A stretch of DNA of 64,000 bases. Origin: a virus (taxonomy: Duplodnaviria; Caudoviricetes). Of this stretch, positions 53,148 to 58,189 are shown one piece after another. Under the pieces are notes generated by a model that made no database searches, was not told where the DNA came from, and saw only the letters and a program-made list of their open reading frames with translations. Position 1 is the first letter of the stretch, and each line of letters starts with the position of its first letter. Both the position numbers and the translations under genes were made by a program. The stretch covers positions 128,001 through 192,000 of the IMG/VR virus record IMGVR_UViG_3300035696_000004. One strand, 5' to 3'.

Positions 53148-55025
53148 TTAGCGGCGAGCCCAGCGGCCGAATCCGGCTTGGCTGACGGTCTGGCCGTTTT
53201 GACCATATTGCGATGCGAACATGCTGCCCGAGTCGCGGCCGCCGATGACGGCGGACTGACCATAGCGAGCGGTAGCGCGCGGTTGGCCGGCGTTTTCGAT
53301 CGTCGGCAGTTGGATGGAAGCGTTCAGGCCAGCGGCCAGGGCGCCACGTACCAGCGCTTCGAAGAAGGCCGGGTTGAACGTTTGACGACGGTACATGCCG
53401 GTGATGGTCGGACGAACCAGCTTGCGGATGATGTTTGCCCGCAGCGAGTTCAGAACCACTTCCGGAGAACGGCGATCCAGCAGCGAGTCGGACCAGTCCT
53501 TGACGACGGACAGATCGGTATCACCGGTGGCGTTCAGAACGTACAGGTGATCGATTTCGCGCAGGTCGCGCATCACGCCTTCGGCATCGCGGAAGAAGCC
53601 CTGATGGATACCGACCGTGTGATCCAGGAACACAGCACGCGGATGGTCACCGTAGATCTTCAGGAACTCGCCGTTGGTGAGGAAGTTGGCCGTGTCGAAG
53701 ATGCGATCGATTGCATCGGTGTCACCCGAACCCGCCAGACCGAATTCGCTGGTCAGCCAGGTGTTGGCGCCGGCTTCGGCGACGTCGATGGATACCAGCA
53801 TGCCGGGATGGAAGTACGCCGCGATCATGTCGTGGTGGAATTCCGGGCGATAGGTATCCGACTTGGTCGGGACACGTTCTTCCACACCGTCGATTTCCAG
53901 ACCGATAGCGCCGATGTCCTTGAAGTCCACATCGGACGTACCGAACTGAGCCGGACGGAAGGCTTCAGCCCACAGGTTGTTTTCGGCCAGACCGAATGCG
54001 GGGATCAGTGCCAGCAGCTGGCTGCCGAGGGACGGCAGTTGGGCGCAGATCATTTCGGTGATGACGTACTCGGCACGGTAGGTTTGTTGGCTCAGGACTT
54101 GGCCGGTGGAGCGAGCGAACGGGTTACGTGCTTGCGCATTGGCCGGTTCGTAGACCAGGTTCATGAAGCCCTTGACGGTGGTGATCACTTCGGTGCGGTC
54201 AACGACAGCGTTGCGGCGATCGCGTTGATTTGCGGAGGCCACGAGTTGTGCGATGGTTTCACCACGGATCGGCAGGCCGACGGCATCGGTTTCGGTCGGT
54301 GCGTTGAAGGCCGGCTTGATCACCAGCTGAGCATCGTTCTTCGCCAGGGCGATGTTCAGGCCGGGGAAGTTGCCCGAGATTTCTTCCAGCGCCATGCAGC
54401 AGGCTTGCAGCGCGTTGGCGGTGGTGCGGTGAACCAGCTTGTCGTCTTCGATGTTGTAGTCGCGCGGAACGACTTCGATGTCGGCATCGAGTTGACGCAT
54501 GTTCGGGTACACCAGGGCAACAGCGTTGCGCACTTCATCGATGAAGGCGCCGTCGGCGGCAGCCGATGCGTAACGCGGGTCTTCGAAATTCACGCCGTTG
54601 TGCGGAACGAACTTCGATTGGAACGGATCGGAAGAACCTTCCAGCAGCAGCGTATGGAACGCGACGGCCGTCGGCTTTTGTTCGCCGACCGGGCGATAGG
54701 TGACAGCGACGATCAGGGCAGACAGGGCGATGTTGCTGTTGTTGTTCTTGTCCAGTTCGAGGAAACGCATTTCGAACAGGTCGGAGAGCTTCTTGGCCGG
54801 TTCCGCCATGGCTGCGCGCAGGCTGGAGAGGATGGCCGATGCGGGATTGGTACCGATACCGCGATGAGCGACATCGCCGAGACCGGTCCAGGAGAACGTC
54901 GAACCATCATCTTGTTCGGCGGTACGACCACGAGCAGAGCCGCCCAGCGGACGGCGAGCAGCGCCCAGTTCTTCTTCGGCAGCGGCATTGGCGGTGGTGG
55001 TTTTTTGGTTTACTTGCAGTACCAT
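53148..55025 (-). CDS. chmA: Chimallin, major phage nuclear shell protein (phiKZ gp54-like)
   Basis: 625 aa directly upstream of the nvRNAP beta-prime N gene (canonical synteny); strongest codon bias in the window; own early-type promoter and terminator. Confidence 0.88.
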   Translation of the reverse strand: MVLQVNQKTTTANAAAEEELGAARRPLGGSARGRTAEQDDGSTFSWTGLGDVAHRGIGTNPASAILSSLRAAMAEPAKKLSDLFEMRFLELDKNNNSNIALSALIVAVTYRPVGEQKPTAVAFHTLLLEGSSDPFQSKFVPHNGVNFEDPRYASAAADGAFIDEVRNAVALVYPNMRQLDADIEVVPRDYNIEDDKLVHRTTANALQACCMALEEISGNFPGLNIALAKNDAQLVIKPAFNAPTETDAVGLPIRGETIAQLVASANQRDRRNAVVDRTEVITTVKGFMNLVYEPANAQARNPFARSTGQVLSQQTYRAEYVITEMICAQLPSLGSQLLALIPAFGLAENNLWAEAFRPAQFGTSDVDFKDIGAIGLEIDGVEERVPTKSDTYRPEFHHDMIAAYFHPGMLVSIDVAEAGANTWLTSEFGLAGSGDTDAIDRIFDTANFLTNGEFLKIYGDHPRAVFLDHTVGIHQGFFRDAEGVMRDLREIDHLYVLNATGDTDLSVVKDWSDSLLDRRSPEVVLNSLRANIIRKLVRPTITGMYRRQTFNPAFFEALVRGALAAGLNASIQLPTIENAGQPRATARYGQSAVIGGRDSGSMFASQYGQNGQTVSQAGFGRWARR

Positions 55026-55117
55026 TTTTCGTTCCTTGTTTACTGTGGAGAGATTATACTACTTTGTTACTTCGTCGACGAGGAGAAACCAAAATTCTTG
55101 GTTCAGTTCTCAGGTAT

Positions 55118-55147
55118 GTGATATAGGTTTGAAATATTCTAGAATCG
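55118..55147 (-). promoter_or_regulatory. Early-type promoter of chimallin
   Basis: Minus strand CGATTCTAGAATATTTCAAACCTATATCAC. Confidence 0.8.
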
Positions 55148-55277
55148 ACCTCAGACCACAAAACTGATACCATAGCTCCCAGCCGGCGAAGCCGACGGGT
55201 GGTAAGAAGATTTCTCTTCTCTATAGGATAGAGGTATATCCTGTAAAAAATAACTTAGTCTTCTTACCGGGGGGGCT

Positions 55278-56858
55278 TTATTCACGGTTAAGTTCAGTCA
55301 CCCGAACCTGTGCATCCAGCTCATAACCGAGCACGAGGTGGGTCTTGATCACTTGCCCGGCATCGTCTACGATCTTGAAGTAGACTTCAGCATTACCGAG
55401 CTCAAGACCGATCAGTCCCTTTGCCTGGACGAAGAGCTTGTCGGACCCCGGTATTTCAAATACATGATCAAGAGTCAAGGTCCGGTAGTTTCCGACCGGG
55501 TCTTGAATAAATTCCCCAGAGACTTGGTATCTCGAAACCTCTCCGGTATCCGCCAAGACATCGATAGCTTTCAGCCGGATCGGTTGTTCGAGTGCCATTT
55601 CGTAGGGCTCGCGGATTACCCCAACACTTGCCAGACCAAGAAGGTTCGTCTTCGAGTTGGCTTTGAGCGGTTTGGTCGGAACAACCCCACCAACAGCATT
55701 CATGACATGCTTAACTGGGATAGCGTCCACGAAATGATGCGCAGAGATCTCCTGATAGTACGGGATGAACTCCACGATTTCCGAATCCGTCAGCCGCACA
55801 TACCGCGGCTCAATTAACGCCGGTTTGGATTCGTTGTGCAACACGGGTTCGAACGTGACTCTTCGCGCCGACAGATTGTAGCCCGCGACCACGAGGTTGT
55901 CCTCAGTGGGTAGAGCTTCAAACTTCATCTCGAGATCGCCGGTTTCGAGATTCAGTTCCCCATCCACATAAACATCGACCGTTTTGAATTGACCATCGAT
56001 CAACAGTGCAGAAGGGCGACCGTAATGCAGTTCCAGTGTTTTGAACTCATGGTTCGCACTGAAAACGAACTGACTCGCGGCGAGATCGTCGGTATGGCTG
56101 ATCTTGAAAAACGGACCCGTCTCCTCGTGACCTTTCTTCGAAAGGTAGAGGGTTTTGAGTCTGACTGACGGATCAACTTGATCGCCAACAGATACCGCCC
56201 CAGAATCAATCAGCTCTTGGGTCTGAGAGATCGCGAGGAGATTCACTTTTACGCCGGCTTTCAAGGGCCGGGTCGTTATTGGCTTATCGGAACCCTCGAT
56301 GAATACCACGGATTGCTCGGAGTTAGCCAGGAGGTGACCGTCGTGTTCCGGATTCCAGATAGCGTGCAACTCTTTTGCTGTGACTCGGATATACGATTGA
56401 TGATTGACCCACTTTGCCATATCTGGCCTGTAATCCCGCACCTCATCCCAGGTAGGGTCCAACACCACCTTGTGCTCTTTGGCAACTTCATGCAGCGCAT
56501 CCGACCAGCCGTCGGGGTGTTTGCGGTCCTCAGAGACCACAGCGGGGATAACAACCGGTGCTCCTTCGACCATGGCACGATAGATCAGATAGCACCGCGT
56601 GTCTTTACTGATGGTTTTGTGGAGTGCTTCCATTTCGCCTTCGAACATCCAGTCCGGGATCTTCCCTTCGATCCGACCCAAATGTTTGAGTAGTTCGCTG
56701 AGTGTCCGGCACCCGAGATCGAAAGCGGTCATGATGTTTCGAGCAAGCCCCGAATACATTTCTTCTGTCGGGACCAGCGGAACGAGTTTCAGATTGCTGG
56801 ATTCACACACCAGATGGTCTCCTACGAGGTTGCCGAAGTTGTCGGTGATATTAGTCAT
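55278..56858 (-). CDS. Protein with two tandem major-capsid-protein insertion-domain-like repeats
   Basis: TTRPLKAGVKVNLL...DQVDPSVRLKTLYL...GYNL and PTKPLKANSKTNLL...PIRLKAI...GYEL; both resemble a recalled phiKZ gp120 segment (TTAPLKANVRLDLM...DTIDPAGRLKNLFV...IGFELD). Confidence 0.6.
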   Translation of the reverse strand: MTNITDNFGNLVGDHLVCESSNLKLVPLVPTEEMYSGLARNIMTAFDLGCRTLSELLKHLGRIEGKIPDWMFEGEMEALHKTISKDTRCYLIYRAMVEGAPVVIPAVVSEDRKHPDGWSDALHEVAKEHKVVLDPTWDEVRDYRPDMAKWVNHQSYIRVTAKELHAIWNPEHDGHLLANSEQSVVFIEGSDKPITTRPLKAGVKVNLLAISQTQELIDSGAVSVGDQVDPSVRLKTLYLSKKGHEETGPFFKISHTDDLAASQFVFSANHEFKTLELHYGRPSALLIDGQFKTVDVYVDGELNLETGDLEMKFEALPTEDNLVVAGYNLSARRVTFEPVLHNESKPALIEPRYVRLTDSEIVEFIPYYQEISAHHFVDAIPVKHVMNAVGGVVPTKPLKANSKTNLLGLASVGVIREPYEMALEQPIRLKAIDVLADTGEVSRYQVSGEFIQDPVGNYRTLTLDHVFEIPGSDKLFVQAKGLIGLELGNAEVYFKIVDDAGQVIKTHLVLGYELDAQVRVTELNRE

Positions 56859-57049
56859 TTTTCATCTCTCCTGATCGACTCCTTTATAAGGGGGTCGCAT
56901 TTCTTGCACAAGTATCGATTTACTCCGCCCATGAAAATAGCACCACACCCGCTACACTTATTCATGGAGTCGCCATTTTCATACTCGAAATCTTCCTCGT
57001 AGTCGTGTCCCGGATTACGAGGCGTATTGTTCGTTGCTGTCAGCGCCAT
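56855..57049 (-). CDS. Small zinc-ribbon protein
   Basis: CSGC-x12-CKKC; coupled to the downstream gene by ATGA. Confidence 0.65.
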   Translation of the reverse strand: MALTATNNTPRNPGHDYEEDFEYENGDSMNKCSGCGAIFMGGVNRYLCKKCDPLIKESIRRDEK

Positions 57050-57091
57050 TTCACCGTCCTAATCGTATAGACAATCTTTTTGGCCTGGGTC

Positions 57092-58189
57092 ATGTACAAC
57101 ATCTTCAATTTGATGCCTGGCGCATCGCTACCGGTTCTGTATGCTCAGAACTGGAACACCGTAAGCGCCGGACTTAGGCGCAATATCGAAACCGTCACGA
57201 ATTACTACCATGATAATCCGATGGCCGTACAAGGCGATCATTTTCTGGTGCGTTTACTTGGTACATTGGATATTCCATTGGCGTTAAATATCTACAGGTT
57301 TTACGATTACCTCTCGTACTCCTCGTTGGATTTGTCAATGGCGTTGAAGATGACTTCCTCTATTTATAAAGGAAGTGTCTTTAATGGTGTCTTTTATGGA
57401 CCCGGTACGACTGAGGTCTTAATCGCTCATAGCGAGGACTTTGATCCTGTTGATGCTGAGCGTAACTGGGAGACCTTAAAGCCCATCAGGGTGCTGCGCC
57501 ATCCTCGCAGTGACCTGATGATGAATATCTTGGACGGTTCCCATACAAGCCGAGAAACTGGGTTCGCTGTCATCGCGATTAATATCCCGATGTTGGCTAT
57601 TCAATTTCGAGCGTTCCTGAAGCGGGAAGAAGAGATTGCTGAAAAGACGGGGGACTCGACCTACTCTGTCCTTCACTATGTCCGAATGTATGCACTACCC
57701 AGCATGATTGAGAGTCATTTGGATTATGTGCTATTTAATAGGATCAACAACCTATTAAATGGTCGTGACAATCACAGGAGCCTCAAGAAACATTCCTTTG
57801 TGATTCCCGACTACTCGGATCGACTGGATGCCATTCAAATGGTCATCTTGAGGAATCTGGCTCATGTCGGAAAGACCTTCACGGGTATTCTGAGAAATGT
57901 GCCTGCGCTGAGTCGCAAGGATATGGACCAAGTCATGCTCGTACCCGATATGGCTTTGACTCGGCAGGTTCTCTGGGCGTTGAGTGTATCTCGATTCCCT
58001 GCCATTGATTTCATGCTGACGGCATCCAGGGAACGCCCCGATACTCGAAATGGTCAAGAGATCAATCGTTTACTCCAAGCGCTGCGCAATATCAAGACCA
58101 GTAATCTGATCACCTCTGTGCTTCCTAGCCAGATCAGTGATCTGCTTCAAGACGAGATGGACACCATTAGCCGAAAGCTCAGGTCATAA
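57092..58189 (+). CDS. Virion/head structural protein (phiKZ gp52-like)
   Basis: ~365 aa; GLRRNIETV..YY...HFLVRLL and GVFYG..T.EVLI motifs; start uncertain. Confidence 0.7.
   Translation: MYNIFNLMPGASLPVLYAQNWNTVSAGLRRNIETVTNYYHDNPMAVQGDHFLVRLLGTLDIPLALNIYRFYDYLSYSSLDLSMALKMTSSIYKGSVFNGVFYGPGTTEVLIAHSEDFDPVDAERNWETLKPIRVLRHPRSDLMMNILDGSHTSRETGFAVIAINIPMLAIQFRAFLKREEEIAEKTGDSTYSVLHYVRMYALPSMIESHLDYVLFNRINNLLNGRDNHRSLKKHSFVIPDYSDRLDAIQMVILRNLAHVGKTFTGILRNVPALSRKDMDQVMLVPDMALTRQVLWALSVSRFPAIDFMLTASRERPDTRNGQEINRLLQALRNIKTSNLITSVLPSQISDLLQDEMDTISRKLRS

Follow-up and report, generated by a model that had tools for sequence, protein, structure and literature searches.

Tandem capsid insertion domains joined to a prophage early-region domain in an uncultured nucleus-forming phage

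We examined a 64,000-nucleotide stretch of phage DNA, called the window below, that corresponds to bases 128,001-192,000 of a 219,772-bp IMG/VR virus record (IMGVR_UViG_3300035696_000004) with direct terminal repeats and a completeness rating of 100%. The subject of this report is ORF X, an open reading frame (ORF) of 526 aa taken from the ORF list at positions 55278..56858 on the minus strand of the window (genome position 183,278-184,858). Its predicted product consists of a small N-terminal domain (N-domain), a linker and two tandem copies of the insertion (I) domain of the phiKZ-type major capsid protein (MCP). ORF X is intact and belongs to the accessory genes of an uncultured chimallivirus from peat, a phage of the giant nucleus-forming type whose DNA is present in four peat metagenome runs. 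Judged from sequence comparison, the gene appears to be a tandem duplication of a trimmed I domain fused to the N-domain. Here we describe the evidence for this assignment, the relationship of ORF X to simpler free-standing I-domain proteins, and the functions it might serve, among which that of a soluble capsid-surface mimic is tentatively favoured.

Two I domains without a capsid core

Available passages of the phiKZ capsid paper (PMC11297242) define the I domain of the phiKZ MCP as residues 248-472, an extension of the HK97 E-loop. That source and the Goslar preprint, again in the passages available, seat the domain on the A/P junction and linker of a neighbouring subunit, with I-domain dimers at the quasi-two-folds, and describe it as the exposed outer layer of the phiKZ-type capsid. 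The two halves of ORF X resemble each other and this domain. When aa 1-340 were compared with aa 341-526 in a single BLASTP comparison, aa 194-335 aligned with aa 393-521 at 36/147 identical positions (24%, E 2e-5), corresponding to nucleotides 56279-55854 and 55682-55296. This is the internal repeat reported by the original prediction, made from the DNA sequence alone, and it was recovered where that prediction had placed it, with the motifs T(R/K)PLKA(G/N).K.NLL, (V/I)RLK and GY(N/E)L common to both copies. The accompanying proposal that the same pattern occurs in the middle of phiKZ gp120 also held. The I-domain profile covers gp120 residues 246-469 (PDB 8y6v), plus the equivalent stretch in three other solved MCPs, and phmmer aligned ORF X aa 192-243 with residues 284-335 of gp120 in 8y6v.

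At the family level, ORF X scored 5.1e-19 with Pfam PF25620 (PhiKZ_MCP), in two stretches, and 9.6e-17 with phrog_3231; the PF25620 match is confined to profile positions 141-264 of 635. Repeat 1 occupies aa 151-339 (55842..56408, minus strand), as delimited by a hidden Markov model (HMM) envelope of 151-339, and was matched by hhalign with a probability of 97.9%. Repeat 2, the more diverged copy, occupies aa 348-526 (55281..55817, minus strand; HMM envelope 348-526). BLAST aligned repeat 1 with aa 263-400 of the phage's own MCP at E 3e-12 and repeat 2 with aa 218-351 at E 1e-6, and the copies are only 28% identical to the I domain of that protein. Pfam, HMMs and BLAST agreed in matching both repeats to the I domain of phiKZ-type MCPs, a comparison of the kind suggested as a check of the original prediction. 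The domain that lies between the N-arm and the P domain of phiKZ-type MCPs is accordingly present in two copies. Relative to its counterpart in gp120 (8y6v, PF25620), each copy is homologous along the whole domain, with both linker strands and the conserved motifs; the ORF X copies differ in being doubled, in lacking the HK97 core, in two deletions and in being joined to an unrelated N-domain.

The N-arm, P domain, A domain and C-terminal arm of the HK97 core were sought in ORF X by Pfam, BLAST and hhalign and are absent, as had been suspected; all matches were to the I domain. An hhalign comparison with a profile of 20 MCPs (738 columns) aligned only MCP 258-398 with ORF 190-311, and the 150 aa ahead of repeat 1 are occupied by another domain, not by the HK97 core. 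MCP alignments show invariant E141/A142 at the x-x-E propeptide cleavage site, and the phiKZ MCP is cleaved after Glu163 according to available passages of PMC11297242. A search for this site in ORF X by BLAST and hhalign found no region that aligns with MCP aa 1-217. Lacking the N-arm, P domain and A domain, ORF X therefore cannot build a shell. The true MCP of the phage is a 747-aa protein encoded at genome 55,014-57,257, 126 kb from ORF X, which agrees with the earlier placement of the gene outside the head module. The original description of a non-capsid protein built from two tandem MCP I domains is thus upheld by the two PF25620 stretches and by the separate match of each copy. Single-sequence AlphaFold2 (AF2) prediction of whole ORF X gave a mean predicted local distance difference test (pLDDT) score of 30.7. 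For a complex of ORF X aa 160-526 and mature MCP (aa 142-747) the prediction returned a score of 0.00, which is no answer and weighs neither way.

Origins of the I-domain copies and the N-domain

An exhaustive search of 1.84 billion representatives with ORF X returned 276 proteins at E <= 1e-3, the best 150 of which were examined. Among these, 135 matched the N-domain only, 13 matched the I-domain part, one was ORF X itself and one (P0002) was a repeat artefact. P0002, a protein of 2608 aa matched in 27 stretches, had been considered as a homologue of the linker and was rejected, the tandem-repeat match being unconfirmed by BLASTP. The 13 I-domain matches comprise ten bare I domains of 171-223 aa, a 484-aa protein with an I domain and a phrog_2428 C-terminus, a 645-aa protein with two I domains and an extension, and one full MCP. 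A profile search limited to proteins of 98-352 aa found 14 clusters, and every cluster with a name was called 'hypothetical protein'.

Extra I-domain genes were also found by a PF25620 scan in 6/15 other chimallivirus records: FLC9 (gp87 and gp132), G007 (two genes), RP12 (ORF214, phrog_36436), Xanthomonas phage RTH11, G001 and G006. Of these records G007 is not independent, because it is FLC9-like. When tblastn was run with one stand-alone protein, phiKZ, 201phi2-1, PhiPA3 and Goslar matched in the MCP only, and a second place was matched in 4/107 records. A scan with alignment A3 gave 28 loci, of which 26 were MCPs, one was the stand-alone protein P0024 and one was a 474-aa open frame. The last (L036:3942-5363), found in a 144-kb IMG/VR contig, is MCP-like with its I domain at aa 119-353 and may represent a capsid gene that is split, truncated or interrupted by an intron. 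The free I-domain proteins (P0024 and its like, RP12 ORF214/RP31 ORF211, FLC9 gp87/gp132 and RTH11 WJJ55076) share with ORF X an I domain outside the capsid gene, and all are annotated 'hypothetical protein'. They differ from it in having one copy and no N-domain, with the exception of P0058, which carries the domain twice and has a C-terminal extension of another kind. While the I domain itself is known, its bare copies sit unremarked in GenBank phages, and no description of free-standing I-domain proteins was found in the literature listings, abstracts and passages covered.

Comparison of capsid and free forms revealed a block kept in both, T.PL..G...LLG.SQT..L...G..D.TD.IDP together with GNYR, VNLE.G and GY.L.A.RVN; the G..D.TD.IDP motif is degraded in repeat 2. 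Both ORF X repeats and the metagenomic stand-alone proteins P0024, P0120 and P0026 lack the segments equivalent to phiKZ residues ~373-395 and 426-449, two deletions that thus mark the minimal forms, whereas the RTH11 and FLC9 free forms retain these segments. Scores from a stand-alone I-domain HMM and an MCP I-domain HMM, both built without ORF X, pointed the same way. Repeat 1 scored 112.5 bits (8e-36) with the stand-alone HMM versus 70.0 bits (9e-23) with the MCP HMM, and repeat 2 scored 65.0 bits (2.8e-21) versus 28.0 bits (6e-10), advantages of 42 and 37 bits, respectively. The free forms P0058, RTH11 and FLC9 gp132 score higher with the MCP HMM. Among the matches listed from the 1.84 billion representatives, the best outside match of repeat 2 was P0120 (E 4.2e-7).

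Phylogenetic analysis used a 43-row tree from which L027 (identical to P0024) and the partial-domain matches of RP12 ORF214 and FLC9 gp87 were left out. The ORF X repeats paired with each other (93/21, on long branches) and fell within the stand-alone group (87/82, not starred), and the phage's own MCP grouped with the FLC9 MCP clade. An approximately unbiased (AU) test did not reject a clade of the repeats and the own-MCP group (p 0.136), so the indels and HMM scores carry the argument for a minimal group. On this evidence the ORF X copies appear to belong to a rare 'minimal' family of free-standing I domains and not to be fresh copies of the phage's own MCP gene. They have both linker strands and the two deletions of that family and are closer to it than to MCPs, and they depart from it in not being single-domain proteins.

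The free copy of RTH11 (WJJ55076) was sister to the MCP of RTH11 itself (91/88). Since the free forms of RTH11 and FLC9 retain loops of the MCP type and are better matched by the MCP HMM, they probably arose separately from the minimal forms, and free I-domain genes appear to have arisen more than once. The RTH11 free I domain (L018, L014) looks like a separate, apparently younger release from the capsid gene. In FLC9, gp132 (L022:3689-4441) adjoins gp131 (L022:2654-3670), which has a phrog_2428-type domain, and both modules are fused in P0132 (484 aa).

No full-length relative of ORF X was recovered. In phages, tblastn matched 16 records, none covering at least 80% of ORF X (27-30% for the three best); ten of the 16 are annotated as capsid or head protein, and two that are called 'hypothetical' were confirmed as MCP. 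A search of 5.8 billion clusters returned ORF X only, and IMG/VR contained no full-length relative. Among the matches listed from the 1.84 billion representatives, the three-part architecture thus appears to be found only in ORF X.

The N-domain (aa 20-100; 56559..56801, minus strand) was delimited as a small helical domain by matches among the 1.84 billion representatives, by alignments A1 and A5 and by AF2. With aa 151 as the start of the I-domain envelope of repeat 1, the N-terminal part measures about 150 aa in place of the ~190 aa originally proposed. Nor is this part unique, as had been claimed, for aa 20-100 match a large family of small prophage proteins. Identity of the N-domain to family members is roughly 40-55% (42-55% in the rows checked). 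In alignment A1 it is 35-52% identical to 21 members with L38, L60, P68, W70, K85, R88, A95 and M96 invariant, and ORF X carries the family signature VP.EPTE.QW.GLAR...KGTR..IYRAM. An AF2 fold of aa 1-165 with an 83-row alignment yielded a confident helical domain, with pLDDT block means of 85-98 at aa 21-100. The linker or unassigned region that follows (aa 101-150; 56409..56558, minus strand) had block means of 75, 58, 74, 55 and 45 and no family match.

The N-domain matched no Pfam, NCBIfam or PHROG family, and neither tblastn against 50,697 phage records nor a word search with the N-domain alone gave a match. Fold searches with the N-domain model produced nothing that stood out (best E 2.3 with Foldseek in PDB, best Z 4.5 in the VIA wide search, best E 0.52 in BFVD), and the ESM Atlas returned unnamed clusters only, with scores of 0.79-0.81. 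A pattern-limited scan of reference genomes found the domain at two loci (L025:4001-4270 and L026:4001-4234), each within the early region of a prophage. The one in a Pseudomonas genome is flanked by genes for a CII-like activator and a primase; in an Acinetobacter genome, exonuclease VIII and phrog_3657 genes lie on one side and an integrase gene on the other. Longer family members scanned with Pfam mostly lacked a recognizable domain (27/31); the other four carry Lar_restr_allev (P0043), DUF551 (P0070), an R67-DHFR-like domain (P0098) and a sub-threshold DnaJ zinc finger (P0065). Collectively, these data indicate that the N-domain represents a large, unannotated family of small prophage early-region proteins. 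Modular early proteins of Pseudomonadota prophages with Lar (PF14354) or DUF551 carry the same domain as ORF X, at 40-55% identity. The domain occurs alone or with a Lar, DUF551 or R67-DHFR-like module, and two prophages have it in their early regions; by contrast with ORF X, none of the best 150 of the 276 matches pairs it with a capsid domain.

Locus and transcription

Contigs from three other peat metagenome runs carry the same ORF X sequence in the parts that they cover, with no differences listed. The nearest cultured relative of the source phage is Burkholderia phage FLC9, whose chimallin is 37.7% identical, and no close relatives of the phage came up when related loci were sought with chimallin and the phrog_3938 protein. 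Genes on the minus strand run from a 64-aa CxxC...CxxC ORF through ORF X and a 252-nt gap to chimallin and then to a non-virion RNA polymerase beta subunit (phrog_2987). Chimallin, the nuclear shell protein and downstream neighbour of ORF X, is encoded at 53148..55025 (minus strand; PF25677 1e-30, phrog_4795 2.3e-73). A 647-aa open frame antisense to it (53178-55121, plus strand) is without family support and was taken as spurious; it exceeds chimallin in length, and gene calling by simple choice of the longest ORF was misled by it.

Upstream of ORF X, the 64-aa zinc-ribbon ORF (56855..57049, minus strand) was read from the sequence. Its stop overlaps the ORF X start (ATGA), an overlap through which the two are translationally coupled. 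It has a weak phrog_10481 match (5e-4) and weak zinc-finger Pfam matches below the cut-off. A Lar-like identity for this ORF was considered and rejected, BLASTP giving no similarity to the Lar module of P0043. Only ~30-42 nt separate it from the divergent phrog_3938 gene (57080..58189, plus strand; phrog_3938 2.7e-83), so both promoters must sit within coding sequence. The phrog_3938 gene, past which lies the DNA polymerase gene as seen from ORF X, is conserved and forms the edge of a variable slot, with homologues flanking the slot in FLC9 and RSF1. Between this gene and chimallin, RSF1 has nothing in the slot, and FLC9 has 12 small unrelated ORFs. The neighbourhood of ORF X is a variable accessory slot.

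Chimallin is preceded by an early-type promoter motif, ATTCTAGAATATTTCAAACCTATATCAC..., at 55112-55145 (minus strand), 116 nt ahead of its ATG and with one mismatch to the 24-nt consensus; ORF X lies upstream of this promoter, as first described. Above 10 bits, the motif, TCTAGAATATTTCAAACCTATATTAC (24-34 nt), has 18 sites, every one of them on the minus strand and none on the plus strand, and the promoter matrix was built from 14/18 of them. Its highest-scoring site is the chimallin promoter (46.3 bits). Sites in the window are at 55145, 46009, 41044, 33208, 31993 and 20778, all on the minus strand, and 12 more lie elsewhere in the genome. The chimallin motif resembles the predicted early promoters of EL (WTTTYAAACCTACATTATY), 201phi2-1 and phiKZ (TATATTAC) in Table 2 of PMC7058600, the part of that paper available. 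This set of sites maps the early transcription units of the source phage. In other peat runs the assembly unitigs are interrupted at the motif copy before chimallin.

The early-promoter matrix scored no better than -3.5 bits anywhere in the 3.9 kb upstream of ORF X, which places ORF X and the coupled 64-aa ORF outside that early class; on this matrix evidence, ORF X is probably made outside the earliest transcription class. With chimallin having its own early promoter and ORF X none, the two are not co-transcribed from it. Nothing convincing was found as a middle or late promoter motif for ORF X among k-mers, words common to upstream regions or, by eye, the region upstream of the MCP gene, and a scan for sigma-70 promoters and terminators was at chance level. 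Two hairpins at 55182..55268 (minus strand), between the ORF X stop and the chimallin promoter, form a possible but unproven terminator. The RNA of 55145-55280 folds at -42.4 kcal/mol (z -1.84, with 10/200 shuffles folding as well), and the terminator scan listed none on the ORF X strand.

Possible functions of a free I-domain tandem

The only known contacts of the I domain are with capsid protein, and its motif block is kept in the free forms. We therefore favour the view that ORF X mimics the capsid surface in soluble form and binds capsid protein, a tentative reading to which we assign a probability of about 0.35. ORF X would bind MCP or capsomers via one or both I domains and would tune or interfere with the assembly or handling of capsids, either its own or those of a co-infecting relative, and the N-domain might add a second partner. 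Satellites provide functional parallels in P4 Sid, Staphylococcus aureus pathogenicity island (SaPI) CpmB and phage-inducible chromosomal island (PICI) Ccm. These capsid-redirecting or capsid-binding proteins are non-shell proteins that engage the helper's capsid protein and alter its assembly, and Ccm is itself a capsid-protein homologue. The likeness concerns the proposed mode of action only, with no sequence relationship claimed; these proteins are encoded by satellites and not by the phage itself, and ORF X is without the HK97 core.

Several observations weigh against a capsid-binding mimic. Both copies lack two surface segments near residues that available passages of the phiKZ paper name in the I-I contact. 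They have strongly diverged, at 28% identity to the phage's own MCP I domain, and repeat 2 has lost most of D.TD.IDP. The four positions named for I-I salt bridges lack conservation among MCPs themselves and are thus uninformative for ORF X. I-domain docking sites on the finished capsid, as described in the structural passages available, are already filled, so the target would have to be unassembled protein, another site or something else. The conserved block may be only the core of the fold, and the tree placement, with its long branches and unstarred group, leaves the alternative unrejected (AU p 0.136). Finally, the prophage early setting of the N-domain, with its Lar or DUF551 fusions, fits a host-directed role as well.

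The divergence of the free copies from MCPs and their loss of two surface segments would also be expected if the I-domain fold had been reused as a general binder in a role unrelated to capsids, its partner being for example a host protein, a phage enzyme or a component of the cell envelope. Such reuse, which we consider arguable though doubtful, would suit the mixed neighbourhoods of free I-domain genes: the RP12/RP31 copies lie next to RtcB and thymidylate synthase, that of RTH11 next to ribonucleotide reductase and that of G001 next to a virion protein. It would likewise suit the joining of I domains to unrelated modules, as in ORF X with its N-domain, in P0132 with its phrog_2428 domain, and in FLC9, where gp132 adjoins a gene with that domain. 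However, the strongest conservation between free and capsid forms falls in the same block, and new free copies keep arising from MCP genes, as in RTH11, which is easier to explain if a capsid-related property is selected. A host-directed reading that retains the link to capsids, one of the two raised by the original prediction, would have the soluble I-domain tandem act as a decoy or sponge that soaks up a capsid-recognizing host sensor, with the N-domain helping to hold or disable it. The position of the I domain in the exposed outer shell layer, as given in the capsid passages available, the location of ORF X in a variable accessory slot, and the occurrence of the N-domain family in prophage early regions with fusions to Lar (P0043) and DUF551 (P0070) are all compatible with a decoy. 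So is the absence of RP31 ORF211, the one free paralogue for which virion proteomics is available, from the 32 virion proteins listed (PMC5468394, Table S3). We nonetheless rate it as rather unlikely. A 2026 review, in the passages available, names no capsid-sensing defence against nucleus-forming phages and gives early or vesicle proteins as the targets of Juk, Avs5, Dionysus and Ophion (PMC13282480). Moreover, mimicry of the trigger should activate the sensor and not silence it, unless activation needs an assembled lattice; ORF X matched no anti-defence family in Pfam, PHROGs or NCBIfam (PADLOC was not searched); and it has no early promoter, although a late decoy would still be timely. The 'decoy' of 10.64898/2026.01.04.697583 was set aside, being a mass-spectrometry term. 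A more specific 'bait and disarm' form of counter-defence, in which the tandem I domains would bait a capsid sensor and the N-domain, whose family is found together with Lar-type restriction-alleviation modules, would disable the catch, is unlikely. If true, it would make the repeatedly arisen free I-domain genes a new class of structural-protein mimics against immunity; an alternative use would be to poison capsid assembly in a rival phage.

Readings that tie ORF X to the finished virion or to the phage nucleus fare worse. As a stable minor capsid or decoration protein on the finished shell, ORF X would resemble the free I-domain genes that lie near the MCP gene (FLC9 gp87 and a G001 gene at ~6 kb, a G006 gene at ~13 kb), and its lack of an early promoter would be in keeping. 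Structural genes of jumbo phages are scattered. Against such a role, which we judge improbable, the MCP gene lies 126 kb from ORF X, whose own position is in a variable slot, and the phiKZ (PMC11297242) and Goslar capsid papers name no I-domain-like decoration protein in their available passages. In addition, RP31 ORF211 was absent from the 32 virion proteins detected by gel-band liquid chromatography-tandem mass spectrometry (PMC5468394), a result of limited depth for a distant paralogue. The original prediction had also raised a factor that docks capsids on the phage nucleus with the neighbouring chimallin, an idea prompted by capsid-like domains directly upstream of the chimallin gene. This proposal is not borne out by comparison with other phages and is very improbable. 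The adjacency is not conserved, with the slot empty in RSF1 and filled by 12 unrelated ORFs in FLC9, and in the other phages the free I-domain genes found all lie away from chimallin. Among the searches made, ORF X is confined to one phage and therefore cannot serve a core step. Chimallin also has its own early promoter while ORF X has none, and the 2026 review assigns docking to ChmB pores in the passages available (PMC13282480).

Capsid proteins are usually seen as shell builders only. In ORF X the outermost domain of such a protein appears to have been freed, trimmed, duplicated and fused to an early-gene domain, and simpler free copies seem to have arisen more than once in nucleus-forming jumbo phages. 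The work also defines a large prophage early-region domain family that lacked annotation and merits a family model of its own, along with the early-promoter set of the source phage. If free I-domain proteins bind capsid protein, they would offer a handle on the assembly, chaperoning or sabotage of giant capsids. Were a host sensor the partner instead, these would be the first capsid mimics to serve in counter-defence. The question can be tested in FLC9, RP12/RP31 and RTH11, cultured phages that carry simpler versions, and the value of the finding lies in turning recurrent exaptation of a capsid domain into a question that can be tested.

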